Virus record (IMG/VR): IMGVR_UViG_3300020451_000536
Strand: one strand, 5' to 3'
Length of the DNA: 64,000 nt
From: an uncultured virus (IMG/VR IMGVR_UViG_3300020451_000536)
Taxonomy: Duplodnaviria > Heunggongvirae > Uroviricota > Caudoviricetes
Below the pieces are notes generated by a model. That model saw only the letters and a program-made list of their open reading frames with translations. It was not told where the DNA came from and searched no databases. The stretch's first letter is position 1. Every line of letters starts with the position of its first letter. Positions 1,125-33,138 of this stretch are shown in pieces. A program made the position numbers and the translations under genes.

Positions 1125-1310
1125 TCATCTGATTCTCTCGTAAGCAAGGTTACAATAAGGACATCTTATAATTTTACCTAATGGTACATTAATATATACG
1201 ATAGGGTGGTCGTTCTCACAACTAATGACTTCCTCTGTAACTTTAATTGTTTTCTCTCTGGTGTCTTGTAAAACTTTGGTTATTCCACTCTTAATATCCT
1301 CATAACCCAT
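1125..1310 (-). CDS. zf-CHCC zinc-finger protein (NDUFS6/NUMM-like)
   Basis: C-x3-HP-x-VYI ... CPYC pattern (SCENDHPIVYINV...RCPYC); GGAG RBS upstream. Confidence 0.7.
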   Translation of the reverse strand: MGYEDIKSGITKVLQDTREKTIKVTEEVISCENDHPIVYINVPLGKIIRCPYCNLAYERIR

Positions 1311-1321
1311 TTACTTCTCCT

Positions 1322-1519
1322 TTAACTCATTAGGTTATACATTCTACGAAAACCGTGTAGACTCATTTGATGTTCAATATGTCGCATATCACTTGCATCT
1401 ATGCAGAATATATCTCGTATGTAATATTCTTCCTCTGGGTCATAGACTAACCCAATCGTGTTTGCATATATGTCAAGAAATAAACACTCTCTTTGTTTAG
1501 TGAATATTATCCGTTTCAT
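1322..1519 (-). CDS. hypothetical protein
   Basis: ORF on coding strand, tightly packed. Confidence 0.5.
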   Translation of the reverse strand: MKRIIFTKQRECLFLDIYANTIGLVYDPEEEYYIRDIFCIDASDMRHIEHQMSLHGFRRMYNLMS

Positions 1520-1831
1520 CTTCTTCTAATTCAAATTCAAATGTTAGTTCCTCATCATCTGTTGTGAATTCAACTACATTCTCCTCGTTGAATTTACGAT
1601 TCTGAGCGTTTTTAAAATTAAGTATCTTTGATTTTTTTGGGCTTGTCATACCAATTCTCCATTATGTCGTCTGGGGGTGTAAATAAAAACTTCACCGATT
1701 TCTTTGAGAGATTAAGTCCTAAAGAAGTATTAAGATGTTCCCTTATCTTCTCTAGTTTAATCCTCTCTCGGTGTTCGGCAAATGATATTATTCTTCCCAT
1801 ACTACTATGTATATGAAAAAATTTTCTTACT

Positions 1832-2155
1832 CTAAACTGGTGTAGGAATACCACTACCACCACACGGCGGTATGTTATACTCATCTGAGTATCTTCCAAA
1901 AGTATCGTAATATCTAATAGAACTCATATTGTCTGCGATATTGGAAGTAACTCTGATTTGAATTTCTCCAAATAACTCTTTATACCTATCAAAGAATATC
2001 GTTGCATCACAATCTTCTTCTAAATAAACCCAATCGTTTTTTTGATAGGAAAAACTAGAAATCTTACCTAGTAAATTCATCTTTCTTAATAGTTTTCTAG
2101 AAACCTTATACCAACCGTGGCCTGGGTCTTGAAAATGTTTAATCGTCTTAATCAT
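1832..2155 (-). CDS. conserved phage hypothetical (DPGHGW...LEEDCD family)
   Basis: DPGHGW and YLEEDCDA motifs recurrent in small phage early proteins. Confidence 0.65.
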   Translation of the reverse strand: MIKTIKHFQDPGHGWYKVSRKLLRKMNLLGKISSFSYQKNDWVYLEEDCDATIFFDRYKELFGEIQIRVTSNIADNMSSIRYYDTFGRYSDEYNIPPCGGSGIPTPV

Positions 2156-2268
2156 TATATAATCTACTCTTTCTATTCATTAATGTTTTTATTCTTTGCA
2201 TATCGTTTTTTCTCAAAGCAACTTGCAAATCTCCATATATTTTATCCAATAGTTGGATTTTTCTCTGA

Positions 2269-2469
2269 TTACTGAGTGGCACTAACACCCTCATCAATCA
2301 AAGGAATCTCAATATTTTGGTGTTCATCTAAATCTTCCACCAAAGAATACAAATCATCTAATGCACCTTCTACACCATAACCTTTATCGTCATTGGCAGT
2401 ATCTATTGCAGTTTGTATTATGTCTTGAATTTCGTTTACTGTATAACCAGCTTTCATTCTTTTTGCCAT
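2269..2469 (-). CDS. early hypothetical protein (acidic)
   Basis: AAAGGA RBS, directly downstream of sigma70 promoter at 2496-2524. Confidence 0.65.
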   Translation of the reverse strand: MAKRMKAGYTVNEIQDIIQTAIDTANDDKGYGVEGALDDLYSLVEDLDEHQNIEIPLIDEGVSATQ

Positions 2470-2495
2470 AATTTATCCTTTCTCATTATATTAAT

Positions 2496-2524
2496 ATTAT
2501 ACTATACTTTGATAGTATTGTCAA
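2496..2524 (-). promoter_or_regulatory. sigma70-type early promoter
   Basis: TTGACA-17 nt-TATAAT on minus strand. Confidence 0.85.
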
Positions 2525-2525
2525 G

Positions 2526-2735
2526 TTAAAAATCATCTCTGTCTATGATTTTATTTTCTACAAGAGTATCTATTTTTTTGTTGATTACTTCTTGTAATTT
2601 ATTCATTGCAGTACAAGCATTGACTATTCCTACTCTAGGGTCATAGTCATTGTTATATGATACTAGTGCATCTTTCAAATTGATATCCATAGTATCAAAT
2701 AACTTTTCTATATTTTCTATCTTTGTAATATCCAT
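2526..2735 (-). CDS. early hypothetical protein
   Basis: ORF with AGAGGA RBS in early cluster. Confidence 0.6.
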   Translation of the reverse strand: MDITKIENIEKLFDTMDINLKDALVSYNNDYDPRVGIVNACTAMNKLQEVINKKIDTLVENKIIDRDDF

Positions 2736-2743
2736 ATTGTCCT

Positions 2744-2929
2744 CTAAAATTTTAGTTTATATTCTTTTTCAGTAATAGACACGATTTTGTCTTCGCCTGT
2801 GTACTCAAAAATCTTGTTATTATTCTTAACATACACCTTGTATTCTTCTGGTGTAAACTTTCTACTTGCATAGTGGGGATAACCCAAATTTTTCCAAACT
2901 CTTCTAGTTTTTGACATATTCACCTCCAT
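2744..2929 (-). CDS. early hypothetical protein
   Basis: ORF in early cluster; GGAGGTG RBS suggests true start at MSKTRR. Confidence 0.55.
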   Translation of the reverse strand: MEVNMSKTRRVWKNLGYPHYASRKFTPEEYKVYVKNNNKIFEYTGEDKIVSITEKEYKLKF

Positions 2930-3128
2930 TGTTAACAGTATAACCTTCTACATCTGGGTTATACATTCCATCTAAAACATTTTCCCAATGTGTTTCTGGG
3001 TCAATGTCATACTTCTTACAAATAACTGCAAATTCTCCATAGTAATTTCCCTCTGGATATTGACCAGCTAAACTTGCTTGTTCATTTAGAACTAAATCTA
3101 TACATTTTAGTGCATCTTTTTTATTCAT
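2904..3128 (-). CDS. early hypothetical protein
   Basis: GAAAGGT RBS, downstream of promoter cassette 3158-3186. Confidence 0.6.
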   Translation of the reverse strand: MNKKDALKCIDLVLNEQASLAGQYPEGNYYGEFAVICKKYDIDPETHWENVLDGMYNPDVEGYTVNNGGEYVKN

Positions 3129-3134
3129 AATTAC

Positions 3135-3187
3135 CTTTCTTTCTTGATTATATTACTATTATACTTTGTTTTAAGAACAATGTCAAG
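3135..3187 (-). repeat. early promoter cassette (TTGACA-17-TATAAT with palindromic spacer), copy A
   Basis: 52/53 nt identical to 34605-34657; spacer contains TTGTTCTTAAAACAA inverted repeat. Confidence 0.85.
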
Positions 3188-3195
3188 CACTTTTT

Positions 3196-3444
3196 TTAAA
3201 CTTTTTCAGAAATATCTTTAATAGTATTATGAAAATTTTCATAAGTATCTATCATAGACTCTAAATCTGATTCTGAAAAATCAGTAAAGTCTTTGTTATT
3301 GTACTTTGGATATTGTGGTTCAAAATAAGTAGGGCCTCCATTTCCGTCATTCCAGATAGAACCCTCATTAGTTTTTGCCTCATATCCTAAACCACGATTT
3401 GTTTCAAAATATCTTACACTTTTTACTATCATATCTTTAATCAT
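3196..3444 (-). CDS. early hypothetical protein
   Basis: ORF with GAGG RBS; NDGNGG motif seen in small phage proteins. Confidence 0.6.
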   Translation of the reverse strand: MIKDMIVKSVRYFETNRGLGYEAKTNEGSIWNDGNGGPTYFEPQYPKYNNKDFTDFSESDLESMIDTYENFHNTIKDISEKV

Positions 3445-3453
3445 ATTAACCTC

Positions 3454-3870
3454 TTATAGTTGATGAAAATGTTCTTCGTCAATATCTCCAACAAGTTTGT
3501 TGAAACCACCAATAACATTACCAGAATAATCAGGCAACCATTGATTTGCAAAAGTCTGTAAATCTTGAACTTCATAGAACAACTTGTCTTTGACTTTCTC
3601 ATCAGTTTTGAAGTTTCCGTCTTTTAACTTATCCTTAACTACACCTTTAACAGTTTGTATAACTTCAATGTAATCAATCAAAGCGTCTTCTAACTCATTA
3701 AGACCCTCATACATTTGAGTAACACCGTCAAAATTATTTTCTAAATCACTATACTTAACATAGTTTCCGTCTTTATCAACATTTTGTTTGTTAAACTTTT
3801 CAAATGCACTATCAATCAATGCATCTTTGTCAACACCTTTAGCTCTCTCTAAACTTACATAACTTTTCAT
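3454..3870 (-). CDS. early hypothetical protein
   Basis: ORF directly downstream of promoter 3904-3932. Confidence 0.65.
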   Translation of the reverse strand: MKSYVSLERAKGVDKDALIDSAFEKFNKQNVDKDGNYVKYSDLENNFDGVTQMYEGLNELEDALIDYIEVIQTVKGVVKDKLKDGNFKTDEKVKDKLFYEVQDLQTFANQWLPDYSGNVIGGFNKLVGDIDEEHFHQL

Positions 3871-3903
3871 ATTTTTCTCTCTTTCTTTCTTGATTATATT
3901 ATT

Positions 3904-3932
3904 ATTATACTATGTTCTGACAACAATGTCAA
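3904..3932 (-). promoter_or_regulatory. sigma70-type early promoter cassette
   Basis: TTGACA-17-TATAAT; leader ...TAATCAAGAAAGAAAG shared with copies at 3135 and 34605. Confidence 0.85.
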
Positions 3933-3945
3933 GTCTTTTTTTAAA

Positions 3946-4233
3946 TTATTTTGCTAATTTTCTTACTAAATCGTTCATTGTATAAGTTCCAGGCGATTCA
4001 GCTGTAACTAAATCTGCAAGTTGTAAGAACTCACTTAATGGCATACACTCTAATTCAAAATAACTAACATTTTCTTGTAGTTTTCTACTTGGTGTATAAT
4101 CACCACTTTTTAACCAATCATTACCTTTTAGTAATTCTTGTACATTATCTTTAGACCACTTCTCAATCTTTTTTCTGTGTTCTATTCTTTCCATTTGTGT
4201 CATCTTATAACCTTCTTTATAACTTTCTTTCAT
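3946..4233 (-). CDS. early hypothetical protein
   Basis: ORF downstream of promoter 4267-4295. Confidence 0.6.
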   Translation of the reverse strand: MKESYKEGYKMTQMERIEHRKKIEKWSKDNVQELLKGNDWLKSGDYTPSRKLQENVSYFELECMPLSEFLQLADLVTAESPGTYTMNDLVRKLAK

Positions 4234-4266
4234 AATATATTGCCTTTCTTTTTTAATTATGTCTCT

Positions 4267-4295
4267 ATCTTAACATTGTTTTAAAAACAAGTCAA
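4267..4295 (-). promoter_or_regulatory. sigma70-type early promoter cassette
   Basis: TTGACT-17-TAAGAT with TTGTTTTTAAAACAA palindromic spacer; A-rich UP element upstream. Confidence 0.7.
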
Positions 4296-4338
4296 GTCTT
4301 TTTTATATTTTTTTTTAGATTGTTGTAGAACTACAACA

Positions 4339-4482
4339 TTACTTGGATTTGTTGTGTAAATCAAAAAGGGTCTTAACCTTTTCTTCTAATACTTGGATTC
4401 TCATATACATTTGTGATAACACTACTACTAGTGTAATGAAACCTATAAACATAGGCCACAATGAATTGATTAATTCTAACAT
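4339..4482 (-). CDS. small membrane protein (47 aa, not in ORF track)
   Basis: MLELINSLWPMFIGFITLVVVLSQMYMRIQVLEEKVKTLFDLHNKSK; AGGAGAG RBS. Confidence 0.55.
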   Translation of the reverse strand: MLELINSLWPMFIGFITLVVVLSQMYMRIQVLEEKVKTLFDLHNKSK

Positions 4483-4531
4483 CTCTCTCTCCTACTAATA
4501 TTTATTAGTTGTCAAGAAAATGACAGTCTTT

Positions 4532-5278
4532 TTAATTTGACACTTGTAATTTCTTGATTTCAGAAATCGCTTTCGCTGGATTTAGACCTTTAGGACAAGT
4601 CTTAGTGCAATTCATTATAGTATGACAACGATACAATTTAAATGCATCATTTAATTGTTTTAGTCTTTCTTTTTTATTCTTATCTCTACTATCTACTATG
4701 AAACGATATGCTTGTAGTAGTATCGCAGGCCCTAGAAACTTTTCACTATTCCACCAATAACTAGGACACGAGGTGGAACAACAAGCACATAATATACACT
4801 CATATAATCCGTCTAACTTTTTTCTATCCTCTGGTAATTGTATGTGTTCTTTTTTAGGTTTCTTACCAGTAACGACATATGGTTTAATACTTTTATATTG
4901 TTCAAAGAATGGTTCTAAGTCTACAACTAAATCTTTTATGACACTCATATGTGGTAGTGGATAGATGTTAAATTCTTTCTGGTCAATAGGTGTTAAACAC
5001 GCAAGGGTATTTGTACCATTGATGTTCATAGAACAACTACCACAGATACCTTCTCTACAACTTCTTCTAAATGTAAGTGTGGGGTCTACATTATTTTTGA
5101 TGTACATAATCGCATCTAATAACATAGGCCCCATTTTTGATTTATTTAAGTGATATGTATTGATACTAGGGTTCTTCCCATTATCACGATTCCAACGATA
5201 GATATTCAATACTAAATTCTTTTTAGTTCCAAAGGTTTTACCTTTTACTATTTTAGAATTTTTAGGTAAACTAAACAT
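4532..5278 (-). CDS. sdhB: succinate dehydrogenase iron-sulfur subunit
   Basis: [10 protein letters not shown] (2Fe-2S), [17 protein letters not shown] (4Fe-4S), [17 protein letters not shown] (3Fe-4S); alphaproteobacterial-like N-terminus LPKNSKI. Confidence 0.97.
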
Positions 5279-5385
5279 ATAAAGATACTAAAATCACAGC
5301 GACTACAATTATTAATAGAACTGTATCAACTAAATTAAGTTTCCAGTATATCTTATCAAACCTTTTGAAGTTTTTGAAATCTTCA

Positions 5386-5502
5386 TCATCCATGTTTCTT
5401 ATAACCCCATCTGTTTTCAGACATATCCCAAACTCTTTTACATTCGTCTGGTATTCTGATTAACATATTACTTAATTTTATGATGTTCTTTGTAACTTGC
5501 AT
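5386..5502 (-). CDS. small hypothetical protein (38 aa, not in ORF track)
   Basis: MQVTKNIIKLSNMLIRIPDECKRVWDMSENRWGYKKHG with AAGGAG RBS, downstream of late promoter 5593-5600. Confidence 0.5.
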   Translation of the reverse strand: MQVTKNIIKLSNMLIRIPDECKRVWDMSENRWGYKKHG

Positions 5503-5592
5503 AATATTCTCCTTATGGTTAACAATTTGAACATTACGCCCTTTTAACTGATGGACTATCAGTCACTTTTGAACCATGTGATATGGTACTAC

Positions 5593-5600
5593 TATTTATA
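5593..5600 (-). promoter_or_regulatory. T4-type late promoter
   Basis: TATAAATA on minus strand, intergenic, upstream of the small-ORF/sdhB run. Confidence 0.65.
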
Positions 5601-5888
5601 AGACTAATCTCTCCACATAAGAATAATAAAGAGGGGTATGATTAAGAGTCCTATTAATCCCACAATCCTAACAATATAGAAAGTATTACTAACATAAAAA
5701 GTATAATTGGTATTAATCCTATTAAGTCAAACATACTTTTTTTAACCCTTTCTCATACTCCTCTTTTGTCTTGTACCATTTTAAAATATAACCAGAACCT
5801 AATTCTGGTATTTGTACTTCAATGAACCAGATTTTTACATCTTGGTCATATCCGTGATAAACTTCATATTTTGAAATAGGTATGTTAC

Positions 5889-5999
5889 CTATGTTTCTAT
5901 TTCTCGGCATTTTTCACAATAACATTGTTTACAATCATTAAGAACTTCTCCACAATGAGAATCATGTCCACAGTTTTTACAAAATTTACTAGTTATCAT
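5889..5999 (-). CDS. small Cys/His-rich metal-binding peptide (36 aa)
   Basis: MITSKFCKNCGHDSHCGEVLNDCKQCYCEKCREIET; start overlaps iscU end. Confidence 0.5.
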   Translation of the reverse strand: MITSKFCKNCGHDSHCGEVLNDCKQCYCEKCREIET

Positions 6000-6381
6000 C
6001 ACAACTGCATTTTTTTTTATAATCAGTGATTGCACTTTTGACAGCATCTTCTGCAAGTACCGAACAGTGTATTTTAACTGGCGGTAATGCGAGTTCTGTC
6101 GCAATCTCTGTGTTTTTAATTGATTGTGCTTTGTCAATATGAACTCCTTTCACCCACTCAGTAACAAGTGAACTTGAAGCTATTGCAGAACCACATCCAA
6201 ATGTTTTAAATTTAGCGTCTGTTATAATACCTTTGTCATCAACCTCTATTTGAAGTTTCATAACATCACCACACGCAGGCGCCCCTACTAGACCAGTACC
6301 CACATTTTTCTTGGTCTTATCTAATGTCCCAACATTCCTTGGGTTCTCGTAATGGTCTATTAATTGTTTACTGTATGCCAT
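5989..6381 (-). CDS. iscU: Fe-S cluster scaffold protein IscU
   Basis: DHYENPRNVG, GAPACGDVM, FKTFGCGSAIASSS, LPPVKIHCS motifs. Confidence 0.97.
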   Translation of the reverse strand: MAYSKQLIDHYENPRNVGTLDKTKKNVGTGLVGAPACGDVMKLQIEVDDKGIITDAKFKTFGCGSAIASSSLVTEWVKGVHIDKAQSIKNTEIATELALPPVKIHCSVLAEDAVKSAITDYKKKCSCDDN

Positions 6382-6415
6382 TTAAAACTCCTACAATAGT
6401 TTATTGCATATATAT

Positions 6416-6802: not shown

Positions 6803-7094
6803 AACTTGACTTCGTAAGTGGGTTATTAATTTTTAGAAAACTACCCATAATCTCTTGTACATAATCTATTTCACTACCCATAATATACATCTCTGCAACT
6901 TTATCTACTGCAAGAGATACCTCATCTTTTATATGAAATATAGTATGTCCTTTATCAGGCTCATCTATATAATCCCACTTGTAACTAAAACCAGCACAAC
7001 CACCACCACTTACACCAAAAGATACAAACTTCTTATCGTTCTTTTTTGCGATGTCGTACAAGTATTTTTTTGCGTTTTCTGTTATCGTTATCAT
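6774..7094 (-). CDS. iscA: A-type Fe-S carrier (IscA/HesB family)
   Basis: ITITENA, GGGCAGFSY, INNP...SSCGCGESF motifs. Confidence 0.93.
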   Translation of the reverse strand: MITITENAKKYLYDIAKKNDKKFVSFGVSGGGCAGFSYKWDYIDEPDKGHTIFHIKDEVSLAVDKVAEMYIMGSEIDYVQEIMGSFLKINNPLTKSSCGCGESFSV

Positions 7095-7210: not shown

Positions 7211-8092
7211 CTATTCGTAATACTCCATAGTAACACCATTTTTAGTTTTTGTAATCTTTCTCGCAGTACCATCACCGATTGGTTCTTCCTTAACAAGTAT
7301 CTTGTTCTTTCTTTGTTTTCGCAACAACTTATCTTTGATTCTTTTTCTTTTATTTAAAACATCTCTAATCGTTATATTTGCAGCCACGACTAGAAGAACT
7401 GCAAGTGGGTCAAACACAAATACTAAAATTAATATAACCCATCTTACTGCATTTTCTAAAAATGTAAGTGCATCATCACCATATAGTAATGCAGAAATAT
7501 ATTTTAGTGGGCCGACCTCAACCTCAAAGTTTTTAATCTCTAATGTATATTCAGATTTCTGGTCAAGATACTCATCAATCTTTTCTTGTGATTTATTAAC
7601 CATATTGGTTAGTTTGAGTCTTTCTTCTTCTTGACTTTCTCTTCTATCTAAACCTTTTGATACTGCACCTAATTCTACATATCTTTCTAGTGCCTTATCT
7701 AAATTCTCTAATTGTCTTTCTGCCCTATCAATTACCTTTTGTTCTGATGCAATCCTACTATTTACTCTATCAAGTTTTATTGACACTTGAGAAGTGTTTG
7801 TACCAGCATCAATGTGTGACTTTGATAGATAACCAAATATACCCATAGAAGTAATAAACATTAATATCACTACTGCACTTGTTAAATAATATTTTAAGAC
7901 TTTGGGAACGGTTTTCCAGTTTTGATATAACCAAGATGCAGTAACAAGTTTACCTATCTCTAGTACAACTCCCATTACTGCAATAGAAAATGCAGCTGCA
8001 GAAAATATCGCCATTAAACCAACAATACTATAATAGGCTGCAACTGCACTAATTGATAGTGCAACAAAAAGTGTTACTAATCCAAAGAACAT
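7211..8092 (-). CDS. multi-pass membrane protein with coiled coil (DUF4407-like phage protein)
   Basis: three N-terminal TM helices, coiled coil, C-terminal FDPLAV TM helix. Confidence 0.65.
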   Translation of the reverse strand: MFFGLVTLFVALSISAVAAYYSIVGLMAIFSAAAFSIAVMGVVLEIGKLVTASWLYQNWKTVPKVLKYYLTSAVVILMFITSMGIFGYLSKSHIDAGTNTSQVSIKLDRVNSRIASEQKVIDRAERQLENLDKALERYVELGAVSKGLDRRESQEEERLKLTNMVNKSQEKIDEYLDQKSEYTLEIKNFEVEVGPLKYISALLYGDDALTFLENAVRWVILILVFVFDPLAVLLVVAANITIRDVLNKRKRIKDKLLRKQRKNKILVKEEPIGDGTARKITKTKNGVTMEYYE

Positions 8093-8902: not shown

Positions 8903-8914
8903 ATCAGTATTTTA

Positions 8915-9430
8915 TCAGACTTGTCTTGATTTGTCAACCCCCATAAAGTGTAAATATGTACTCATTATAAACTTAGGTTCTTTCTTAGGCATCTCACCCT
9001 CGTGTGGAAACATCCACATTGGTGGGAATATAACTACACTACCTTTTTCTGCTGGTACATATGTCTTTTCAAATTTAGTACCAGCTTCACTTGTATTTAA
9101 ATAAAACAATAATGCAAGAAACCTTGTGCAGTTTTGTATATTACCAGCATCAGTATGCCAAGGAAAACTACCTTTATTAGGTTCATACCTTTTTATCCTA
9201 AAACCCTCTAATGCAAATGGTTCTGGGTGTTGATTTGTTTTGTCGTGCAACTCAAAATAATGGTCTGTAACTTTATAAACTATATCTTTCATATAGTTTG
9301 TAAGTTTATGTTGAGTATCTATTTCTACTTGTGTGAAATTACCATAATCAATAGGTTCATATGATTCATAATATTTCAACAAGTCACTTACCAAATCATC
9401 TGGTAGAATGTTCTTGTATAGTTGTATCAT
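8915..9430 (-). CDS. 2OG-Fe(II) oxygenase
   Basis: WHTD, LFYLN, GTKF, FPPMWMFPHEG, KFIMSTY motifs. Confidence 0.88.
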   Translation of the reverse strand: MIQLYKNILPDDLVSDLLKYYESYEPIDYGNFTQVEIDTQHKLTNYMKDIVYKVTDHYFELHDKTNQHPEPFALEGFRIKRYEPNKGSFPWHTDAGNIQNCTRFLALLFYLNTSEAGTKFEKTYVPAEKGSVVIFPPMWMFPHEGEMPKKEPKFIMSTYLHFMGVDKSRQV

Positions 9431-14041: not shown

Positions 14042-14494
14042 ATGAGTTACAGTGGTCGTTATAATCCCTCTAATGTAAAAAAGTATAAAGGTAATCCTAC
14101 TACTATTTATTACAGAAGTTTGTGGGAGCGCAAATTTATGGTATATTGTGATAAAAATCCTAGAGTATTAGAGTGGGGGTCAGAAGAAATAATAATACCT
14201 TATCGTCTACCCACAGACGGTAAAATTCACCGATATTTTACAGATTTCTATGTAAAAGTGAAGAGAGCAGATGGTAAAATAAGAAAAATGATTATAGAAG
14301 TCAAACCTAAAAAATATACTGTTGAACCTAAAATACCTAAAAGAAAAACTAAATCATTTGTAAGAGAAGTTTACGAGTGGGGAAAGAATACTGCAAAGTG
14401 GAAAGCTGCAAGAGAATATTGTAGAGATAGAAATATGGATTTTGTAATATTGACTGAAGACCACCTCAATCCCACTTATAAATATAATAAATGA
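14042..14494 (+). CDS. gp4: head completion nuclease gp4
   Basis: YRSLWERKFMVYCD, WGSEE, HRYF.DF, IEVKP, NTAKWKAA motifs. Confidence 0.93.
   Translation: MSYSGRYNPSNVKKYKGNPTTIYYRSLWERKFMVYCDKNPRVLEWGSEEIIIPYRLPTDGKIHRYFTDFYVKVKRADGKIRKMIIEVKPKKYTVEPKIPKRKTKSFVREVYEWGKNTAKWKAAREYCRDRNMDFVILTEDHLNPTYKYNK
14477..14484 (+). promoter_or_regulatory. T4-type late promoter
   Basis: TATAAATA 6 nt before gp2 ATG. Confidence 0.7.
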
Positions 14495-22944: not shown

Positions 22945-23537
22945 TACTTTTTATTTTTTGTTAAATTAAGAACTTTCATTTTATACTCTGTTTCATTAAT
23001 TGTCAATAGTGAATTGTAATTATTTAATTTGTTTTTATGATTAGGCCATATGATATTTTCATTTATTTGTTTATCCCAATCTTTTTGATAGTTTACTAAC
23101 TTGTTTAATATAATCATTGTTTCTATATTAATTCTTTGTGATAAATAATTTCTAAACAATATTGGGTGTTGTCCATTTTCAACAGTAAATAATTTATTAA
23201 AATCTGTAACTTGATTTAACAACAAGTTCATATCTTGTTCAAACATATATTTTAATGATTGATGTCTTTTTTTCCAATCTGTAAAGTTTCTATCATTGAA
23301 CTCACCAATATAACCTTTTTCATTTTTCAAAAAATTAGATACAAAAAAGTCTTGTGTATCATCTCCATACTTTCTTGCAACTTTACCAAAAAAATGTTTG
23401 TCTTTTCTTTTTAAATAACTTGATTTACTAGCTCTAGTTTTACCACCGTACTTTGTGAAATCGTAGTCTGAGTTAAAATGTGCTTTCAAACCCATATAAA
23501 TTTTAAATGCATTAAAGGCGTCCATAATATGAATCAT
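22944..23537 (-). CDS. gp59: helicase loader gp59
   Basis: YMGLKAHFNS.YDF.KYGGK, RKDKHFF, FFVSNF, ETMIIL motifs; between gp33 and gp32. Confidence 0.88.
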   Translation of the reverse strand: MIHIMDAFNAFKIYMGLKAHFNSDYDFTKYGGKTRASKSSYLKRKDKHFFGKVARKYGDDTQDFFVSNFLKNEKGYIGEFNDRNFTDWKKRHQSLKYMFEQDMNLLLNQVTDFNKLFTVENGQHPILFRNYLSQRINIETMIILNKLVNYQKDWDKQINENIIWPNHKNKLNNYNSLLTINETEYKMKVLNLTKNKK

Positions 23538-23743
23538 ACTGGTAGTTTACCCATTTTAGGTAAAAAGTTTAAATCTCTTGCGTTTGCTTCTATTTTATCT
23601 TTAAGTGGTTTCTGGATTAAACCAGTGATTGAATCTGGTTCTATTTCATTCTTGATACAATATTCTAATATCGCATCCATATGTGTGATATTTTTCTCTC
23701 TGACTTGAGATTCTATGTATATTGAAAATGTTTTTGGTGTCAT
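23534..23743 (-). CDS. gp33: late transcription coactivator gp33
   Basis: FSIYIE..V, HMDAILEYC..NEIE, PLKDKIEANARDLNFL; start taken at MTPK. Confidence 0.9.
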   Translation of the reverse strand: MTPKTFSIYIESQVREKNITHMDAILEYCIKNEIEPDSITGLIQKPLKDKIEANARDLNFLPKMGKLPV

Positions 23744-23762
23744 TATATATTCACAATCTAAT

Positions 23763-23808
23763 AAAAAAAGGGTGGGTTCAAACCTTGAAGGTATTATACC
23801 CCACCCCT
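23763..23808 (-). terminator. rho-independent terminator after pqqA
   Basis: GGGTGGG...CCCACCC stem followed by 7 T on minus strand. Confidence 0.7.
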
Positions 23809-23820
23809 TATTCAATGAAA

Positions 23821-23898: not shown

Positions 23899-23963
23899 AG
23901 TTATTCTCCTAACTAGTATGGAGTGCTGGTTGCCTTGGGCCGCAGACCACTCATTATTATTAT

Positions 23964-24210
23964 GGTGAGTATTCTGTTACTAGGAACTCACCGAACCCTA
24001 TCCGATTAAGCTGCGAGAGCGAAATCTTGAGATGCAAAATTGTCGTTTGCATTTATTGTGTTTGACCTATAAGGAAGTCAACCCATACTCTCCAATAACT
24101 CTTAAATACCTGTCAACCCTATTTCACCCCCTCATTAGGGGTTTTGGTGGAGGTGGAGGGTACTGCCCCCTCGTCCAGTCTATCTCCAAATTATTTTCAT
24201 CAAGTATCTC
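23964..24210 (-). ncRNA. ssrA: circularly permuted two-piece tmRNA (alphaproteobacterial type)
   Basis: acceptor piece ending GAGGGGGCAGTACCCTCCACCTCCACCA (CCA end at 24145), 13-nt intervening segment, coding piece starting GGGGGTG at 24131 (G3-U wobble), tag ANDNFASQDFALAA* at 24050-24006; 5' boundary approximate. Confidence 0.93.
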
Positions 24211-24256
24211 TATATGTATAATTTATATTTCTGTAAGTTATATGAACAAAATTATA

Positions 24257-27446: not shown

Positions 27447-27452
27447 AATATA

Positions 27453-28157
27453 TTACTCTCCTAGACCAAGTTTTGTTTTTTCTATTAAATATGAGCGAAC
27501 AAAACCAGAACGAACAATATCACCTATCGTAAATTCTACTGTTTCAAATTCTTTCATTTGTTCTAATATTCTCATAAAATCTTGTAGTCCTTCTTTTTCA
27601 CTCATCTTGGTCAAATCTGATTGAAAGAAATCACCACAAAATATAATTCTACTGTCTTGACCAACTCTTGTAACAATCGTATCTAATTCGTGAAAGTTAC
27701 AGTTTTGAGATTCGTCAACAATTACGACAGCGTTATCTAATGTTATACCACGAAGATATGAAGTTGTCAAGAAGGTAACACTACCTTGATTCTTTAATCT
27801 GTCGTATAACATACTAAATGCATTATCACTTGATTGTTCAAACATAAACTGAACCATATTATGATAGGGTACTTGGTACAATGCAGACTTATCCTCTTCA
27901 TCACCAGGCAGAAACCCCATATCTCTCGTAGGAACAACTGAACGAATAATGATAACATTTTCATATTTACTCTTTGGGTCTAATACTTGTTCTAGTGCAA
28001 GGTAAAGTGATATAAAAGTTTTGCCTGTTCCAGCTGCACCAAACAAAAACAAATTCTTATTTTCTTTTCTCCAGGCATTAAATACTACCTTTTGATTATC
28101 TGTAATTGGTTTTACAGTAACTAAGTTATCTAATTTAATATCTTGTTTCTTACTCAT
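27453..28157 (-). CDS. phoH: PhoH-like ATPase
   Basis: GAAGTGKT, RSVVPTRDMGFLPG, YLRGITL, DESQN, GD..QSDL, DIVRSG motifs. Confidence 0.95.
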   Translation of the reverse strand: MSKKQDIKLDNLVTVKPITDNQKVVFNAWRKENKNLFLFGAAGTGKTFISLYLALEQVLDPKSKYENVIIIRSVVPTRDMGFLPGDEEDKSALYQVPYHNMVQFMFEQSSDNAFSMLYDRLKNQGSVTFLTTSYLRGITLDNAVVIVDESQNCNFHELDTIVTRVGQDSRIIFCGDFFQSDLTKMSEKEGLQDFMRILEQMKEFETVEFTIGDIVRSGFVRSYLIEKTKLGLGE

Positions 28158-28866
28158 AATTTTCCTCGTAATTGTTTCCTAAATTGTCAGTATATACTAT
28201 TTTTTCTATATCACCACTAAACAAAGTGAAGTAATGATTTTGTGATATACCGATTGTTCCCTCATATGAGAATATACCTTTACTTGTTTTAACAACAACA
28301 GAGTCAATATAATCTGCTGGTATTTCTGTTCTAGTTAATTGATTAAATTGTAATCCAGAATAGTTTGGGTGATTGAATTGAATTTTCTTTTTATCAAAAT
28401 GTAGTTTGTCATCAATAATATCTATTTTATCTTTTGGTACATCATTATCAACTATTGGTGTTGCAGAACAACCACCAGCTGCCTTGATATACTTTCTGTT
28501 AACATATAAATTACCATCTATATCTTCTGCAACAACAGTTAAATGAGTGTATGCATTTACTCTTATATTAGTTTCTATGTATGGTAGTAAACCTACAAAT
28601 TCAAATGTTGCACAACAAGGTGTTGGATTTTCATCAATGATTAAAGTGAATTTAATTAAATCTTTTGACTTTGTTGTGATAACAATAGGAACATCACCAC
28701 TATCTATTGCACGATAAGGTGAATCAATAATTATGTCTTTAGTTTGTACAATCTTTTGAGAACCATACAAATTATTTTTTAACCATTCATTCCAACTATC
28801 TGAACAAACAGATAATGGAAACAGTAAAATGAAAAGACTAAGGACTACGCTTTTTATGTTTATCAT
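28150..28866 (-). CDS. quinoprotein dehydrogenase-associated SoxYZ-like carrier (fused SoxY-SoxZ, periplasmic)
   Basis: signal peptide; PYRA.D...VP, LIIDENPTP, TNIRVNAYT, KAAGGCSA, HPNYSGLQ.NQLT...IPA.Y, ISQN motifs. Confidence 0.82.
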   Translation of the reverse strand: MINIKSVVLSLFILLFPLSVCSDSWNEWLKNNLYGSQKIVQTKDIIIDSPYRAIDSGDVPIVITTKSKDLIKFTLIIDENPTPCCATFEFVGLLPYIETNIRVNAYTHLTVVAEDIDGNLYVNRKYIKAAGGCSATPIVDNDVPKDKIDIIDDKLHFDKKKIQFNHPNYSGLQFNQLTRTEIPADYIDSVVVKTSKGIFSYEGTIGISQNHYFTLFSGDIEKIVYTDNLGNNYEENYE

Positions 28867-29161
28867 ATGCTCTTTTTGCTTTTATTTTCCTAATTGATTT
28901 TTTACCATATCTTTCTGCAAGTGGGCTGGTAGGGTGTTTTTCTGCAATCTTACTAAACACCTCTCTCATACCAGAATCACCTTTTTCACTTTTAGTAACC
29001 CCACTAACCACATTCATATTTAAATAATCAGCAGATTCAATATTCGGATTATTTTTTAAATACTCTACTTTCTCATCGTAGGACATAAATTCATCAAAAT
29101 ATTTATCTTCTTGTTTGTTATAGAAATCGTATCTAGGCATCTTTACTTTCATTAAAACCAT
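28838..29161 (-). CDS. conserved T4-like hypothetical (FmdB-like N-terminus)
   Basis: MPRYDFYN...EFMSY.E...YLK.NP pattern. Confidence 0.65.
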   Translation of the reverse strand: MVLMKVKMPRYDFYNKQEDKYFDEFMSYDEKVEYLKNNPNIESADYLNMNVVSGVTKSEKGDSGMREVFSKIAEKHPTSPLAERYGKKSIRKIKAKRAYDKHKKRSP

Positions 29162-29330
29162 ATTCTTCTGTAAGTTCTGCTTTCAAATCATTCGCTCTTT
29201 CTTGAATATAATTTTTTGCAGTATGAACATAACCCATATCTTCTGGGCCATTATCTTCAATAAATTTATCTGCAATTCTTACTTCTTCAAGTAACCATAA
29301 TAATTTATCAAGTTTAGTTGGTCTTTTCAT
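29133..29330 (-). CDS. hypothetical protein
   Basis: overlapping ORF chain; P.DMG.VHTA motif. Confidence 0.55.
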   Translation of the reverse strand: MKRPTKLDKLLWLLEEVRIADKFIEDNGPEDMGYVHTAKNYIQERANDLKAELTEEYGFNESKDA

Positions 29331-29556
29331 TTTTAAGTTCCCTTATTGTTTCGTTAAGTTCTTTTATTCTAATGTATAAATTTTGTATTTGTTTCTGCAT
29401 TTGTGCAATCTCAAACTGATACAATTCATCTTTACCTAACCAGTTTTTTTTTAAATCTTCTCTTTGTTTTTTCACCTCTTTACTTTCTAAATATTCTAAA
29501 TCACCTTTATTGATGTGTTCATTAATCATATCCCAATATCCTTTTCTTGAAACCAT
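29314..29556 (-). CDS. coiled-coil hypothetical protein
   Basis: overlapping ORF chain. Confidence 0.5.
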   Translation of the reverse strand: MVSRKGYWDMINEHINKGDLEYLESKEVKKQREDLKKNWLGKDELYQFEIAQMQKQIQNLYIRIKELNETIRELKNEKTN

Positions 29557-30083
29557 GATGGTACACTCCTATTTTTCCAAGTCGCAAATTTAGTCTTTTC
29601 TTTTATATAGTAGTTCTTATATGCAGCTAAAGGATTATTAGGTATTTTACAATATTCTGGCATACATTGAGGCATCTGTGTAATCTCTGGTGTCATATTA
29701 ATATTTTGTGGTAACATATTTAAATATGGTATTCTATCTTCTACTGAATGTCTTTTACCATATCTATATGTAAACTCTTTTAATAAATGTTTTAATAAAT
29801 GTAGTAACCAAGAATAATTACCTTTGGTTTCTCTACACCATATCGCAGATGGGTGTTTCGTATGACACGCTAACATTAGATTCTTATCCATAAAATCCAC
29901 TGGGTGTTTCCACCTTTTTACATTTCTACCAGTTTTAGATTTACCGACAAATTCTTTTCCGTCTAATAATCTATGTGCAGTTGATAATAGTTGTGCATAC
30001 TCTACACACATTTTTACAGCGTGTTTATCACAATGTTCCAAAGATGCAATCTTTGGGTCTTCATTAATATAAAATATATTCAC
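29526..30083 (-). CDS. pyrimidine-dimer DNA glycosylase / DenV-like protein
   Basis: MNIFY..EDP...A..HCDKH.VKM..EYAQLLSTAH, HPSAIW, PQCMP, AYKNYY motifs. Confidence 0.8.
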   Translation of the reverse strand: MNIFYINEDPKIASLEHCDKHAVKMCVEYAQLLSTAHRLLDGKEFVGKSKTGRNVKRWKHPVDFMDKNLMLACHTKHPSAIWCRETKGNYSWLLHLLKHLLKEFTYRYGKRHSVEDRIPYLNMLPQNINMTPEITQMPQCMPEYCKIPNNPLAAYKNYYIKEKTKFATWKNRSVPSWFQEKDIGI

Positions 30084-30084
30084 A

Positions 30085-30741
30085 TTATCTCCTTCTATAA
30101 AAAATGTGTCTACCTATTTTTACTGTTTTTTCAAAATGTCTTGACCATTTTGGTTTAACATAGTCAGCGTGATAATACAACGCTCCGTCTGTAATGTCAA
30201 GTAGTGTTTTAAAATTTGATGCAACTAAACCCTCTGCAAGAACATATAGTTGATTATATGTGTAGTGGTCTTTTATCTCATCTGATTTACCATCACAGTA
30301 CCAACTGAATTGACACATATGTTTGATAGGTTTTTTCAAACCTTTTTCTTTTAACCACCATTGTGATATTTTTGCATCTTCTATAACACCACAAATTGTG
30401 TTTGGATATATTTCACTTTTTACTCTGTTTAAAACTACATTGGTTACACCTAGAACTCCAGCAGTTCCTTCATTACGAGCTTCAAAATACATATTCTTTG
30501 CAAGACAAGTTATTTCTTTTTTGTCAATATACCTATCGTATTTTGCAATTTCCATATATTGCATTTGTGGAATTCTTTCTGGTCTATTGATACCAGCGAT
30601 AACAATGAATGTTGCTAATATTGTAGTAAATAGTTTAAAAAACACTCTGTACCCCTCATCTATATTTTTGAATTGTAGGGAACGGTCTGGTAATCCAACT
30701 TGTTCCCTTACAATTCTGGGTTTAGAATAAGTCTTGGTCAT
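30085..30741 (-). CDS. cell wall hydrolase (SleB/Hydrolase_2)
   Basis: CLAKNMYFEARNE, VVLNRV, YPNTICGV, CQFSWYCDGKSD, GALYYHADYV.P.W, IGRHIFY. Confidence 0.92.
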   Translation of the reverse strand: MTKTYSKPRIVREQVGLPDRSLQFKNIDEGYRVFFKLFTTILATFIVIAGINRPERIPQMQYMEIAKYDRYIDKKEITCLAKNMYFEARNEGTAGVLGVTNVVLNRVKSEIYPNTICGVIEDAKISQWWLKEKGLKKPIKHMCQFSWYCDGKSDEIKDHYTYNQLYVLAEGLVASNFKTLLDITDGALYYHADYVKPKWSRHFEKTVKIGRHIFYRRR

Positions 30742-30949
30742 CTTCCTTATTCATCATATAAGTGCCAAGACTCATAAACCCAATTCCAGCGACTGCGAGG
30801 ATGGAAAGAGTAGTGAGAGAGGCGTCACCATCAACAGCACCAGCCGCAAGAATACTGAATAAAAATCCAATCATAAAATAAATCATAATATACCTATAAA
30901 TAAAATGTTAATAATTATTATAATACCATATTATTTTAATATGTCAACC

Positions 30950-31429
30950 CTATGCAGATTTTTTATAATCTTTATGATTAACATTTAAAAAATTGTCATC
31001 CCAATCAAATGCCTCTTGTACCACTTGTTTTGATAACCCCTTATATTTTTGATGTAATTTCTTATCTTTTGCAAGTATTAAAACTTCTGCTTCACCCTCT
31101 TGTAATCCCTCTAACATTTGGACAAACATTGTTTCACATTTAACTTGTTTTAATTTATCATTTCCACCTTTAATAAAATGAAAAAGTTTACTCGCTTCTT
31201 GTTCTAATCTTGTGTGTTCAGTTCCCTCTGGTGCATCATTTTTAATAAATGGTACATCACCGTCTGGTAATCTCCACACAATTTTAGGGTCAAAACTAGA
31301 TTTTAAAACCATCTTCAACCCATCACTTTTATATTTTCTTAATACATTTATTTTTTTATCTTTAACCTTTGCATTGTTAACCATAGTTAATACTTCGTGC
31401 ATCAAAGGTCTTACAACATCATATGCCAT
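30950..31429 (-). CDS. conserved T4-like protein (DUF6433-like)
   Basis: LP.GDVPF, L.HF.KGG, RE/CETMFVQMLEGL...EAEVL...KDKKL pattern; follows RNase H. Confidence 0.7.
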   Translation of the reverse strand: MAYDVVRPLMHEVLTMVNNAKVKDKKINVLRKYKSDGLKMVLKSSFDPKIVWRLPDGDVPFIKNDAPEGTEHTRLEQEASKLFHFIKGGNDKLKQVKCETMFVQMLEGLQEGEAEVLILAKDKKLHQKYKGLSKQVVQEAFDWDDNFLNVNHKDYKKSA

Positions 31430-32274
31430 TAAAAATCTCCTAGTTTTTCAGTCAGCTCTTTTAGTCTGTGTTTCATAAAATAAGGTAGTATTTTACTCTT
31501 ATCTTTTTGGGTAATTTTATCTACCCACTTATTATATATGAGTTCTCCCAACTCATTTGGTATACTGTCAAAGTCAATCAATGTTTTGTTCCTTTGATAG
31601 TTTCTTTTAATCTCACCCTCTGGAATACCATTTTCTTTCCACTCAGTTAATTTCTTTTTTGTTATTGGTCGTTGTCTTAAATCCTCTACAAAAACTGTAT
31701 CTTGTGATAAAACATTTGGAACTCCATCACCTTTATCACCTCTAATAATATGTTCAAATTTGTAGTGTTCTGGATTCGCATCAACTACATACTTTTTCAA
31801 AGTTGGTGAATATTGTTTTATATTTTCTTTTTGATGTAGTTGTATAAAATCTTTATCACCAGATATAATTAATATTTCCTCATATAAGTTTGGTGTAGAA
31901 GAAATCTTATTTGATAAAATCGCAATAATATCATCAGCCTCTGCACCATCTATTTTTAAAACTTTATAAGGGAAATTTTCTTCTAACTCATTTTGAATTT
32001 TAGTTAGTATATCAAATAACTCATTCCAATCTAAACTACTTTCACTTCTTGCCTTCTTACGATTTTGTTTATAATAAGGAAAGTAATCTTTTCTCCAACA
32101 ATATTTATCGTCATAACAAAGTACCAACTCACCAAAATCTTTACTGAATTTTGTTTTATAAGACCTCAAGGAGTTTAGTACCATATGTCTTACTAAATCC
32201 TCACTTAAAGGTTCATCTTTCATCTGTATCATCAAATTACTTATTGTAACTTGATTCATATCAACTAATATCAT
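31429..32274 (-). CDS. rnh: T4-type RNase H (5'-3' exonuclease)
   Basis: MILVDMNQ, WRKD.FPYYK..RK, EADDIIA, ISGDKDFIQL, GDKGDGVPN motifs. Confidence 0.95.
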   Translation of the reverse strand: MILVDMNQVTISNLMIQMKDEPLSEDLVRHMVLNSLRSYKTKFSKDFGELVLCYDDKYCWRKDYFPYYKQNRKKARSESSLDWNELFDILTKIQNELEENFPYKVLKIDGAEADDIIAILSNKISSTPNLYEEILIISGDKDFIQLHQKENIKQYSPTLKKYVVDANPEHYKFEHIIRGDKGDGVPNVLSQDTVFVEDLRQRPITKKKLTEWKENGIPEGEIKRNYQRNKTLIDFDSIPNELGELIYNKWVDKITQKDKSKILPYFMKHRLKELTEKLGDF

Positions 32275-32753
32275 TTATTCTTTTTTTTATCCAAAGCTTT
32301 CAAAAACTTGGGTATCAATTCCATTTTAAATATTGTGTTAGTATTACCTTTTTTATCTTTTTCTTGAACCATAAACTTATCAACCAAAGGTTGCATTTCG
32401 TGATTAATATCTAAATCTCTATAAATAGAACTCTTGATTGATTCAATAACAAAAGATAAATCTTTTATAAATGTTGGGTCATTAACTTTCAATCCATTAT
32501 CATTTAATGAATGTACTAATTGTACTATTAAGGCTTCAGTAAGTTGGTCTGCAAAAGAGATATCCTCATTAAGTCTTAATAAGTTCTCATCTGGTTTAAC
32601 TACTTTTCTTTTACCCTTAAATCTTTTAGGGAATTTAATTATGTTATCGTTTTTCTTTTCCATAATAATATTTATATCCAATAGTTTATTAAACCAAAAA
32701 CTGATATAATAAACCCAACAGAGTTTAATAATATGATAGAACCGTCTTTCCAA
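32271..32753 (-). CDS. hypothetical protein
   Basis: likely true start at MEKKNDNIIKFP. Confidence 0.6.
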   Translation of the reverse strand: MERRFYHIIKLCWVYYISFWFNKLLDINIIMEKKNDNIIKFPKRFKGKRKVVKPDENLLRLNEDISFADQLTEALIVQLVHSLNDNGLKVNDPTFIKDLSFVIESIKSSIYRDLDINHEMQPLVDKFMVQEKDKKGNTNTIFKMELIPKFLKALDKKKNK

Positions 32754-32914
32754 AAATATCCTACACTAACCCATACAACACTCCCTATGGTCATAAAGTA
32801 TAGATTTAGTGGATAGATATTAAAAGATGTAAAACATAAGCCTATCAACAATAGGAAAGAACCAAACCATTTTAAACCTCTAACTTCTCTAGTTTCTCTT
32901 TCTTTCTTATACAT
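32672..32914 (-). CDS. small membrane protein
   Basis: three hydrophobic segments, NIYPLNL motif. Confidence 0.55.
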   Translation of the reverse strand: MYKKERETREVRGLKWFGSFLLLIGLCFTSFNIYPLNLYFMTIGSVVWVSVGYFWKDGSIILLNSVGFIISVFGLINYWI

Positions 32915-33138
32915 CTTCTTGTACTCGCAGCCTTCTCTTTTCTTTTTCTTTCGTTCCTTGTTTCGTAATATTCTCTTTTACGAAGTTCATTGAACATATC
33001 TTCTTTTTGTAGTTTCTTTTTCAGTTTTCTAATTGCCTTGTCTACATTTCCGTTCTCTACTGCAACAGCAGTACCAGGCAATCTTTTCTCTGGGAATCTT
33101 TTCTTTTTATTAAATTTATGAACTTGTTTGAATCGCAT
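32872..33138 (-). CDS. rpsU: ribosomal protein bS21
   Basis: V.V.NGNVDKAIRKLKKKLQKE..F.EL..REYYE...E.KRK.K pattern. Confidence 0.85.
   Translation of the reverse strand: MRFKQVHKFNKKKRFPEKRLPGTAVAVENGNVDKAIRKLKKKLQKEDMFNELRKREYYETRNERKRKEKAASTRRCIRKKEKLEKLEV

Follow-up and report, generated by a model that had tools for sequence, protein, structure and literature searches.

The window analysed here is a stretch of 64,000 nucleotides of DNA from an uncultured tailed virus (Caudoviricetes; IMG/VR record IMGVR_UViG_3300020451_000536), and it contains a kit of genes for respiration, cofactor synthesis, iron–sulfur (Fe–S) cluster assembly, phosphate metabolism and ribosome rescue. This kit is real and recurrent. 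We propose that the window belongs to a lytic T4-like myophage that probably infects bacteria of the TMED127/'Methylaequorales' lineage and that has two layers of auxiliary genes. The backbone layer consists of phoH, ribosomal protein S21, a two-piece transfer-messenger RNA (tmRNA) and an optional plcP–agt pair; by homology it is common to the phage relatives, which infect other streamlined bacteria, and it is silent on the host. The host-tuned layer on balance appears to comprise PqqA (the precursor peptide of pyrroloquinoline quinone, PQQ), a viral SoxYZ-like carrier, IscU together with an A-type Fe–S carrier, the succinate dehydrogenase subunit SdhB together with an SDHAF4-like protein, and an NDUFS6-like zinc finger (zf-CHCC). 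We infer the host assignment, the expression of the kit and any metabolic effect that it has from sequence.

According to the parts of PMC12542740 drawn on here, TMED127/'Methylaequorales' is an alphaproteobacterial order of streamlined obligate methanol oxidisers with an incomplete tricarboxylic acid (TCA) cycle; the genomes are ∼1.5 Mb in size with a 45-kb 'methylotrophy island', xoxF5 makes up 16–57% of transcripts, and 2-oxoglutarate dehydrogenase is absent from all 64 genomes. Five products of the window, SdhB, PqqA, IscU, the SDHAF4-like protein and zf-CHCC, appear to point to this lineage, the last three more weakly. A previous reading of the window from its letters alone (the sequence-only reading) had expected an alphaproteobacterial host that uses the iron–sulfur cluster (ISC) system and PQQ enzymes, and the agreement of these five genes on one alphaproteobacterial lineage bears this out. 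Its description of the host as a heterotroph has to be given up, since the same source portrays TMED127 as obligately methylotrophic and its TCA cycle as incomplete (PMC12542740). Whether all of the genes trace to one lineage was the check that it put forward; the five do so, and PlcP, Agt, IscA, S21, the tmRNA and the SoxYZ-like carrier do not.

SdhB exceeds its family cut-offs (355.3 bits versus 228 for NF004616 and 280.5 versus 88 for TIGR00384) and is 77% identical (189 of 247 residues) to its homologue in the candidate-host genome G002, with all 11 cysteine columns common to both. Among the cellular matches in species-representative genomes (best 80 loci), the top three, all from marine alphaproteobacteria, are 72–76% identical to the window protein and all others 58–66%. 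A match is present in 36 of 41 relatives of G002, the genome with the best match, at 72–78% in 21 small genomes (0.8–2.0 Mb) and at 58–66% in the remaining 15. In a tree of 66 rows, the window sequence and those of 13 viral contigs form one clade (support 99) that is nested within a clade, also with a support of 99, containing 19 TMED127-type cellular rows, and the Pelagibacteraceae row lies outside. These cellular rows were chosen as the best matches to the G002 SdhB, and just four of them have been published under the name TMED127 (CM1_5m.P40, AG-892-F10, MED652 and TMED13; PMC12542740, in the parts drawn on); MED723, AG-337-B08 and AG-337-E20 (72% to G002) form a separate branch among the 19 and their membership of TMED127 is unconfirmed. 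CM1_5m.P40 (genome G004) falls in the same order as G002. HIMB59/AEGEAN-169 had also been considered as the host clade and was dropped, the records of the clade being named TMED127 in the same source; none of nine names of single-amplified or metagenome-assembled genomes from the SdhB clade occurs in the supplements of PMC10734472, and neither methanol nor PQQ occurs in the main text of PMC10308909. Other viral SdhB copies (L015–L022 and L117) branch elsewhere in the tree and are separate captures. Among 50,697 phage records, SdhB gave one credible match, an unannotated gene of the metagenomic phage C48C1, which also has IscU. In this complete Kyanoviridae genome (156 kb) the gene is recorded as 'hypothetical protein' (L117 6004–6711; OQ984149.1 43111–43818), its product is 51% identical to the window SdhB, and it lies 2 kb from a gene whose product, a NifU-like IscU, shares 73% identity with the window IscU; its distance from the window SdhB in the tree marks it, too, as a separate capture.

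Pfam searches of the window revealed no sdhA, sdhC or sdhD, and the phage SdhB would need to pair with host subunits. The neighbouring DUF1674 protein (PF07896, 63.5 bits versus 23.5) matches chain C of PDB 8dyd, the mitochondrial 'succinate dehydrogenase assembly factor 4' (phmmer E value of 1.4e-8), with the C-terminal motif kept. It is likely a candidate SDHAF4-like assembly factor, and SdhB would therefore travel with the probable assembly factor of its own enzyme. This identification rests on the PDB match, as no literature pairing 'SDHAF4' with 'DUF1674' was found. The protein is 75–77% identical to its homologues in TMED127 genomes versus 61–70% in two Pelagibacterales genomes. The zinc-finger protein passes its Pfam threshold (PF10276, 32.2 bits versus 27) and shows weak matches to NDUFS6/NUMM of complex I in the PDB (E values of 0.036–0.4); a match is present in two of three TMED127 genomes (39–41% identity) versus neither of two Pelagibacterales genomes.

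The PqqA peptide scores 39.4 bits versus 20 with TIGR02107 and 32 versus 21.1 with PF08042, and it has the E-x-x-x-Y pair; the Glu-x3-Tyr pair of PqqA becomes PQQ. Its gene sits between the tmRNA and a gp33-like late coactivator gene (23534–23815). In an even sample of 401 alphaproteobacterial genomes, 37 genomes matched at E≤1e-6, and the 11 best hits, with 88–92% identity across the full 25 residues, belong without exception to the four TMED127 genomes of the sample, the best match outside them being 83% over 24 residues. Between the window peptide and TMED127 copies, 2 of 25 residues differ (92% identity). The family was present in all three TMED127 genomes searched, with 2–4 copies each. 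None of PqqB, C, D or E was detected in the window by Pfam, and pqqBCDE is present in G002. The latter genome carries four dispersed copies of pqqA (L119, which is G002:C5:50000-68000, and L120), just one of which adjoins pqqBCDE.

The SoxYZ-like carrier passes the TIGR04557 threshold marginally (140.5 bits versus 140) and has a signal peptide. Its carrier-cysteine motif (KAAGGCSA) is invariant in all seven aligned sequences from phage and host, and the viral copies have an additional PCCA motif and are without an eight-residue insertion found in the host. In the class sample it matches 19 of 401 genomes at 35–43% identity with no preference for TMED127. In a tree, the window copy groups with 18 sampled viral ones (support 100) and a very long branch separates this clade from 11 cellular copies, and the gene is accordingly placed by phylogeny in an old, purely viral clade. 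No match was found among the 50,697 phage records, a pattern scan of cellular genomes with the protein returned a single irrelevant match, and neither a PQQ dehydrogenase (Pfam) nor partner hydrolases of the carrier were seen in the window.

The genome of the candidate host provides a context for these genes. In a single 18-kb stretch, G002 contains, in order, an ABC transporter of the PQQ-alcohol-dehydrogenase system, pqqA, pqqBCDE, pseudoazurin, a MoxJ-like protein, a XoxG-like cytochrome, a XoxF-type dehydrogenase (671 bits), a SoxYZ-like carrier (240 bits) whose gene adjoins xoxF, and tetrahydromethanopterin (H4MPT) genes. Genome G013 holds iscS-iscU-iscA-hscB-hscA-fdx. Thus, two of the phage genes map to a methanol-oxidation island and one to an isc operon, and since the proposed host lineage is methylotrophic, PqqA and the SoxYZ-like carrier are read as support for methanol oxidation. 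The G+C content of the window (∼31%, spanning 28–36% across the 64 kb) compares with 31–33% for the host loci.

IscU (TIGR01999, 223.9 bits versus 192.4) has three cysteines that align with those of the G013 protein. It is 77–84% identical to homologues in 35 of 42 TMED127 genomes; in the class sample three TMED127 genomes rank at the top and non-TMED127 genomes reach 80%. Hence, IscU appears weakly to agree with a TMED127 origin and does not decide it. The A-type carrier belongs to subfamily TIGR00049 (91.2 bits versus 58.8) and falls below the IscA equivalog TIGR02011 (72 bits versus 150.6). It keeps the C...CGC ligands and is 35% identical to the host IscA, and at 35–43% identity to all five genomes tried it carries no host signal. 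Between the two genes, the conserved open reading frame (ORF) is found at the same place in five related contigs (L001–L004 and L014; 57–99% identity), with weaker matches (32–37%) in three contigs of a sister type. A further ORF just upstream of iscA (7211–8092) has no family match and is kept in related contigs at 83–100% identity. Family scores and the retained cysteine ligands bear out that the phage carries host-type parts in intact form, and in being host-derived, intact and conserved among related phages the genes share these properties with an auxiliary metabolic gene set of the cyanophage kind.

Two independent scans of viral contigs reveal how often the kit recurs. Relatives of SdhB occur in 22 contigs, 14 of them at 79–100% identity to the window copy. 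The window gene order around SdhB is kept in five of these 14 (L001–L004 and L014), and six form a sister lineage (L005, L006, L007, L010, L011 and L012) in which SdhB lies ∼3 kb from a run of SoxYZ, IscA, PqqA and IscU. All or most of a longer run (SoxYZ, IscA, PqqA, IscU, cell-wall hydrolase, gp33, gp59 and gp32) is present in L005, L006, L007 and L011, and L010 and L012 carry SoxYZ and IscA. The second scan, with a SoxYZ alignment, gave 61 viral contigs at 43–100% identity. PqqA is present in 38 of them, including all 36 that reach gp33; PhoH is found in 49, IscA in 13, IscU in 10 and SdhB in six, and every IscA and IscU copy is within 3 kb of SoxYZ. This co-occurrence and the local clustering in related contigs are what speaks for a common role.

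The phage itself was characterised by Pfam searches, which identified T4-type baseplate genes (gp53 and gp26/T4_baseplate) and a T4-type replication and recombination set (gp32, gp59, RNase H, DnaB-like gp41 helicase, UvsX/RecA and family B DNA polymerase). Nearly all of the window genes are on the minus strand. The top match of the gp41 helicase is to the Methylophilales phage Melnitz (70.1% amino-acid identity), followed by cyanomyophages, and the gene order PhoH-PDDEXK-SsrA-coactivator-gp59 is common to the window and Melnitz. The T4-type gene set and the proximity of gp41 to that of Melnitz therefore place the window, by homology, among the T4-like marine myophages of the Melnitz/pelagimyophage group, with no closely related cultured phage. 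The curated TIGR02505 model finds an RTPR-like ribonucleotide reductase candidate that scores 311.7 bits, just below the cut-off of 340, with weak Pfam ribonucleotide reductase domains; its presence fits a remark in the sequence-only reading that the host uses vitamin B12.

The genes of the backbone layer lack a TMED127 signal. The plcP and agt genes overlap by eight bases. The product of the former is a PF00149 metallophosphoesterase that misses the LpxH equivalogs (64 bits versus 134 and 49.8 versus 190); as a curated PlcP model does not exist, it is a predicted PlcP, judged by its being a non-LpxH metallophosphoesterase beside a glycosyltransferase family 4 (GT4) agt. It has matches in 145 of the 401 alphaproteobacterial genomes at E≤1e-10, most of them full-length at 43–55% identity; one genome in this count, G266, is marked as unpublished and supports none of the conclusions. 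Agt is 41–42% identical to the product of the gene adjoining plcP in G002, G013 and the Pelagibacterales genome G299. Agt, IscA and S21 are 35–43% identical to everything tried, and together with PlcP they appear about equally distant from TMED127 and Pelagibacterales. Among 28 related viral contigs that cover the M15-to-PqqA interval, where the pair is located, it is present in just four (L243, L260, L278 and L280), so it is a variable cassette, and this patchiness suggests niche-dependent carriage that is perhaps linked to phosphate. PhoH scores 152.8 bits versus 27 with PF02562 and does not reach the NF007827 equivalog (101.4 bits versus 380), for which reason it is best called 'PhoH-like'; its gene adjoins the SoxYZ-like gene in 45 of the 61 related contigs.

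The tmRNA matches two Rfam models, each at full length (RF01849, 117.4 bits versus 50; RF04321, 120.6 versus 47), and the tag frame is open, ending in ...ALAA-stop, although ARAGORN calls no tmRNA in the window. Its nearest relative is the SsrA of Melnitz (75.7% over 133 nucleotides), and it is present in all nine window-type relatives checked and was not found in contigs of the sister lineage. S21 (TIGR00030, 53.7 bits versus 28.95) is nearest to the Melnitz copy among phages (45.5%), and cellular copies are 36–42% identical. An ORF for a membrane-like DUF6552 protein (32672–32914) has 43 bases in common with the end of the S21 gene, and the two occur jointly in related contigs (30 and 29 of the 61 loci).

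The features are collected in the table below. All ten of those named in the sequence-only reading are present where it had placed them and on the minus strand, according to Pfam, NCBIfam and Rfam searches, and curated family thresholds are reached by all of them other than PlcP and Agt; the range that it gave (1125–33138) runs exactly from the first to the last of the named genes.

Auxiliary and related features of the window (positions in nucleotides; ORF, open reading frame; aa, amino acids).
Feature	Position	Strand	Family or remark
SDHAF4-like candidate (DUF1674), 49 aa	979-1128	-	PF07896; outside the list of the sequence-only reading and just outside its range
zf-CHCC zinc finger, NDUFS6-like, 61 aa	1125-1310	-	PF10276
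SdhB, succinate dehydrogenase iron–sulfur subunit, 248 aa	4532-5278	-	NF004616
IscU Fe–S scaffold, 130 aa	5989-6381	-	TIGR01999
Conserved ORF between iscU and iscA, 128 aa	6416-6802	-	No Pfam, NCBIfam or PHROGs family
A-type Fe–S carrier (IscA/ErpA/SufA-like), 106 aa	6774-7094	-	TIGR00049
PqqA, PQQ precursor peptide, 25 codons	23821-23898	-	TIGR02107, PF08042
Two-piece (permuted) alphaproteobacterial-type tmRNA, ssrA	23963-24254	-	RF01849, RF04321
Agt-like GT4 glycosyltransferase, 338 aa	24930-25946	-	PF00534, PF13439
PlcP-like metallophosphoesterase (predicted), 243 aa	25939-26670	-	PF00149
PhoH-like ATPase, 234 aa	27453-28157	-	PF02562
Exported SoxY-SoxZ fusion carrier, quinoprotein-dehydrogenase-associated type, 238 aa	28150-28866	-	TIGR04557
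Ribosomal protein S21 (rpsU), 88 aa	32872-33138	-	TIGR00030
RTPR-like adenosylcobalamin-dependent ribonucleotide reductase (candidate)	36102-38018	-	TIGR02505, sub-threshold

Other genes of the window lie outside the kit. A protein with a TnsA-like endonuclease N-terminal domain (14042–14494, plus strand; PF08722, E value of 3.9e-24) is encoded by the first gene of a short plus-strand baseplate block, and a copy of the T4 late-promoter motif TATAAATA ends six bases ahead of its start. Three separate genes encode 2-oxoglutarate-Fe(II) oxygenases (322–876, 8915–9430 and 55854–56426), a class common among marine T4-like phages. A protein of 957 residues (49590–52463) contains a cytidylyltransferase-like region and DUF5824 and is without an NCBIfam match. 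A PHROGs scan assigned no family to SdhB, the SoxYZ-like carrier, the DUF1674 protein or zf-CHCC, nor to 17 of the 19 small or unnamed ORFs.

Several observations weigh against a TMED127 host with a functionally coherent kit. Within the window, the kit genes are scattered over 32 kb and do not form one operon. Phage structural and replication DNA was found in none of 42 TMED127 genomes, giving no physical link, and the nearest cultured phage, Melnitz, infects OM43, which belongs to a different class. The best cellular match of PlcP is in the Pelagibacterales genome G299 (55% versus 49–50% in TMED127) and its best phage match is a gene of the Pelagibacter (SAR11) phage Mosig (57%). The tmRNA is 53–58% identical to all four cellular tmRNAs tried and provides no host signal. 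IscU is a weak discriminator, given the matches at 80% in outsiders, and its tree is poorly resolved with four well-supported branches. Because of its very long branch the SoxYZ-like carrier cannot be traced to TMED127, and it may have changed function.

Some of these points would be expected if the host were a general heterotrophic alphaproteobacterium such as SAR11, with a strict pelagimyophage sustaining an ordinary organic-carbon respiratory chain. Such a host would suit the phage backbone of the Melnitz/pelagimyophage group, the affinities of PlcP and the G+C content of ∼31%, which fits SAR11 as well, and IscA, IscU, S21 and PhoH are among the pelagimyophage auxiliary genes tabulated in PMC7029224 (Tables S4 and S5, the part used here). 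However, the PqqA family was found in none of 201 Pelagibacterales genomes, neither the SoxYZ-like carrier nor an ISC-type IscU turned up in a search of two Pelagibacterales genomes (IscU giving partial matches of 33–41% identity), and the SdhB of a Pelagibacteraceae metagenome-assembled genome is 63% identical to that of the window and lies outside the clade containing the viral sequences, which makes SAR11 an improbable host. An OM43-type (Methylophilaceae) methylotroph, as for Melnitz, would account for the 70% identity of the gp41 helicases, the gene order from PhoH to gp59 that is common to both phages and the presence of PqqA in each, and the first report of a viral PqqA concerned Methylophilaceae phages (PMC7678222, in the part consulted). 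Yet the window PqqA is of the TMED127 type (92%) and the Melnitz peptide is visibly different, SdhB is nested in an alphaproteobacterial clade, and the SDHAF4-like and zf-CHCC proteins are found in alphaproteobacterial genomes, those of OM43 not being among the genomes searched; we give this host very little credence.

It is also conceivable, if rather unlikely, that the genes have no function in common and that the phage acquired useful or neutral host genes independently and at different ages, the 'toolkit' being a grouping by the reader. Their histories are mixed (SdhB and PqqA are TMED127-like, SoxYZ is old and viral, and the tmRNA and S21 are shared with Melnitz), plcP–agt occurs in just 4 of 28 contigs spanning its site, and the genes occupy at least three separate places over the 32 kb. 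No shared signal was seen upstream of the kit genes: TATAAATA has ten occurrences in the first 34 kb, none of which falls in the 80 bases preceding any of them, a result that says little because the sequence is so AT-rich. Set against this, SdhB, IscU, IscA, PqqA and SoxYZ co-occur across lineages that have diverged to between 43% (SoxYZ) and 96% (PqqA), in the sister lineage rearrangement has gathered them in a compact cluster, SdhB is accompanied by the probable assembly factor of its own enzyme, and PqqA tracks methylotroph-infecting phages, Melnitz having a match and Mosig and C48C1 none. The proposal of a TMED127-infecting phage with a host-tuned layer is the one that we carry forward.

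One PqqA peptide is consumed for each PQQ molecule, the maturation enzyme PqqE is a radical-SAM enzyme with several Fe–S clusters, and SdhB holds three clusters (2Fe-2S, 4Fe-4S and 3Fe-4S). In methylotrophs with the serine and ethylmalonyl-CoA cycles, malate and glyoxylate are regenerated by a carbon assimilation route of which succinate dehydrogenase is a part. We propose that small phage parts that are stoichiometrically consumed or labile to oxidation would top up the host while its gene expression declines, at the level of PQQ-dependent methanol oxidation, Fe–S supply and complex II, and that the flow of energy and carbon would thereby be kept going until lysis. As a tentative extension, these could be the first recognised phages of TMED127, the dominant methanol oxidisers of the oligotrophic surface ocean, with a methylotrophy-maintenance module. 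In such a module PqqA would feed PQQ synthesis, IscU and the A-type carrier would supply the Fe–S enzymes PqqE and SdhB, and SdhB and its SDHAF4-like partner would sustain quinone reduction and the succinate-to-malate step of the ethylmalonyl-CoA/serine cycle; the phage-specific periplasmic SoxYZ-like cysteine carriers could in addition act on the XoxF system in a mode that cellular studies have left undefined. No literature linking TMED127 to a phage was found among the matches listed, the one paper there naming TMED127 just in passing. TMED127 bacteria are abundant ocean methanol oxidisers without a culture, and if the proposal is true, a phage with consumable parts for methanol oxidation ties viral infection to the marine methanol and lanthanide cycles, provides a handle on the SoxYZ-like carrier, and extends to complex II and cofactor precursors the logic known from cyanophage psbA, whereby a labile part is replaced by the phage.

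Several of the kit genes have already been published as phage auxiliary metabolic genes. Pelagimyophages, whose backbone is of the same type as that of the window, are credited with IscA, IscU, S21 and PhoH (Zaragoza-Solas et al. 2020, PMC7029224, in the part comprising Tables S4 and S5); the host that we propose is not SAR11. 'Succinate' and 'SoxY' occur in neither the main text nor the supplements of PMC7029224, 'PQQ', 'PlcP' and 'tmRNA' are absent from the main text, and none of these genes is entered in Tables S4 and S5. No literature joining 'pelagimyophage' with 'succinate dehydrogenase' was found, and none treating PlcP as a phage gene among the matches listed. The T4-like Methylophilaceae phages of Lake Baikal have a viral PqqA and a methanol dehydrogenase (Coutinho et al. 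2020, PMC7678222, in the part consulted), and their stand-alone pqqA, which is read there as boosting PQQ for methanol oxidation, resembles that of the window. The window differs in having no viral methanol dehydrogenase, in its putative host, a marine alphaproteobacterial methylotroph, and in that its PqqA is accompanied by the SoxYZ-like carrier, ISC genes and SdhB. Like Melnitz, for which a two-piece tmRNA has been described (Buchholz et al. 2022, PMC9004378, the part consulted), the window has a two-piece tmRNA of the alphaproteobacterial type directly upstream of the late-transcription coactivator, together with phoH and S21. Searches of the phage collection gave no SdhB, SoxYZ-like or PlcP match in the Melnitz records, and no glutamine riboswitch was detected next to the window tmRNA (E≤1). 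The PqqA match of Melnitz lies elsewhere in its genome, as an unannotated ORF (L234 1641–1697; MZ577097.1 76140–76196, plus strand; TIGR02107, 31.6 bits versus 20) at a site where the record annotates a hypothetical ORF on the opposite strand.

In common with other carriers of TIGR04557, the window protein is a SoxY–SoxZ fusion, has a signal peptide and retains the conserved carrier cysteine (GGC). Unlike the cellular members, the viral copies form a separate long-branch clade with the PCCA motif and without the eight-residue host insertion. To our knowledge, the biochemical role of this family is not known. Lipid renovation by plcP–agt was reportedly treated by Carini et al. in 2015. The pair forms an operon in marine alphaproteobacteria, SAR11 among them (Sebastian et al. 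2016, PMC4796936, the part consulted), and that of the window agrees in gene order and orientation with those of G299 and G002. In contrast to the cellular operon, the window copies, at 41–55% identity, are part of a variable cassette. Cyanophages carry the photosynthesis and electron-transport genes psbA, psbD, petE and PTOX. Such auxiliary genes of cyanomyophages are tabulated in PMC7029224 (Table S5). As in those phages, a T4-like marine phage would here provide single subunits or carriers with a fast turnover from the main energy pathway of its host rather than the whole pathway. The pathway in the window differs in being PQQ/lanthanide-dependent methanol oxidation with complex II and Fe–S assembly, in a putative non-photosynthetic host.

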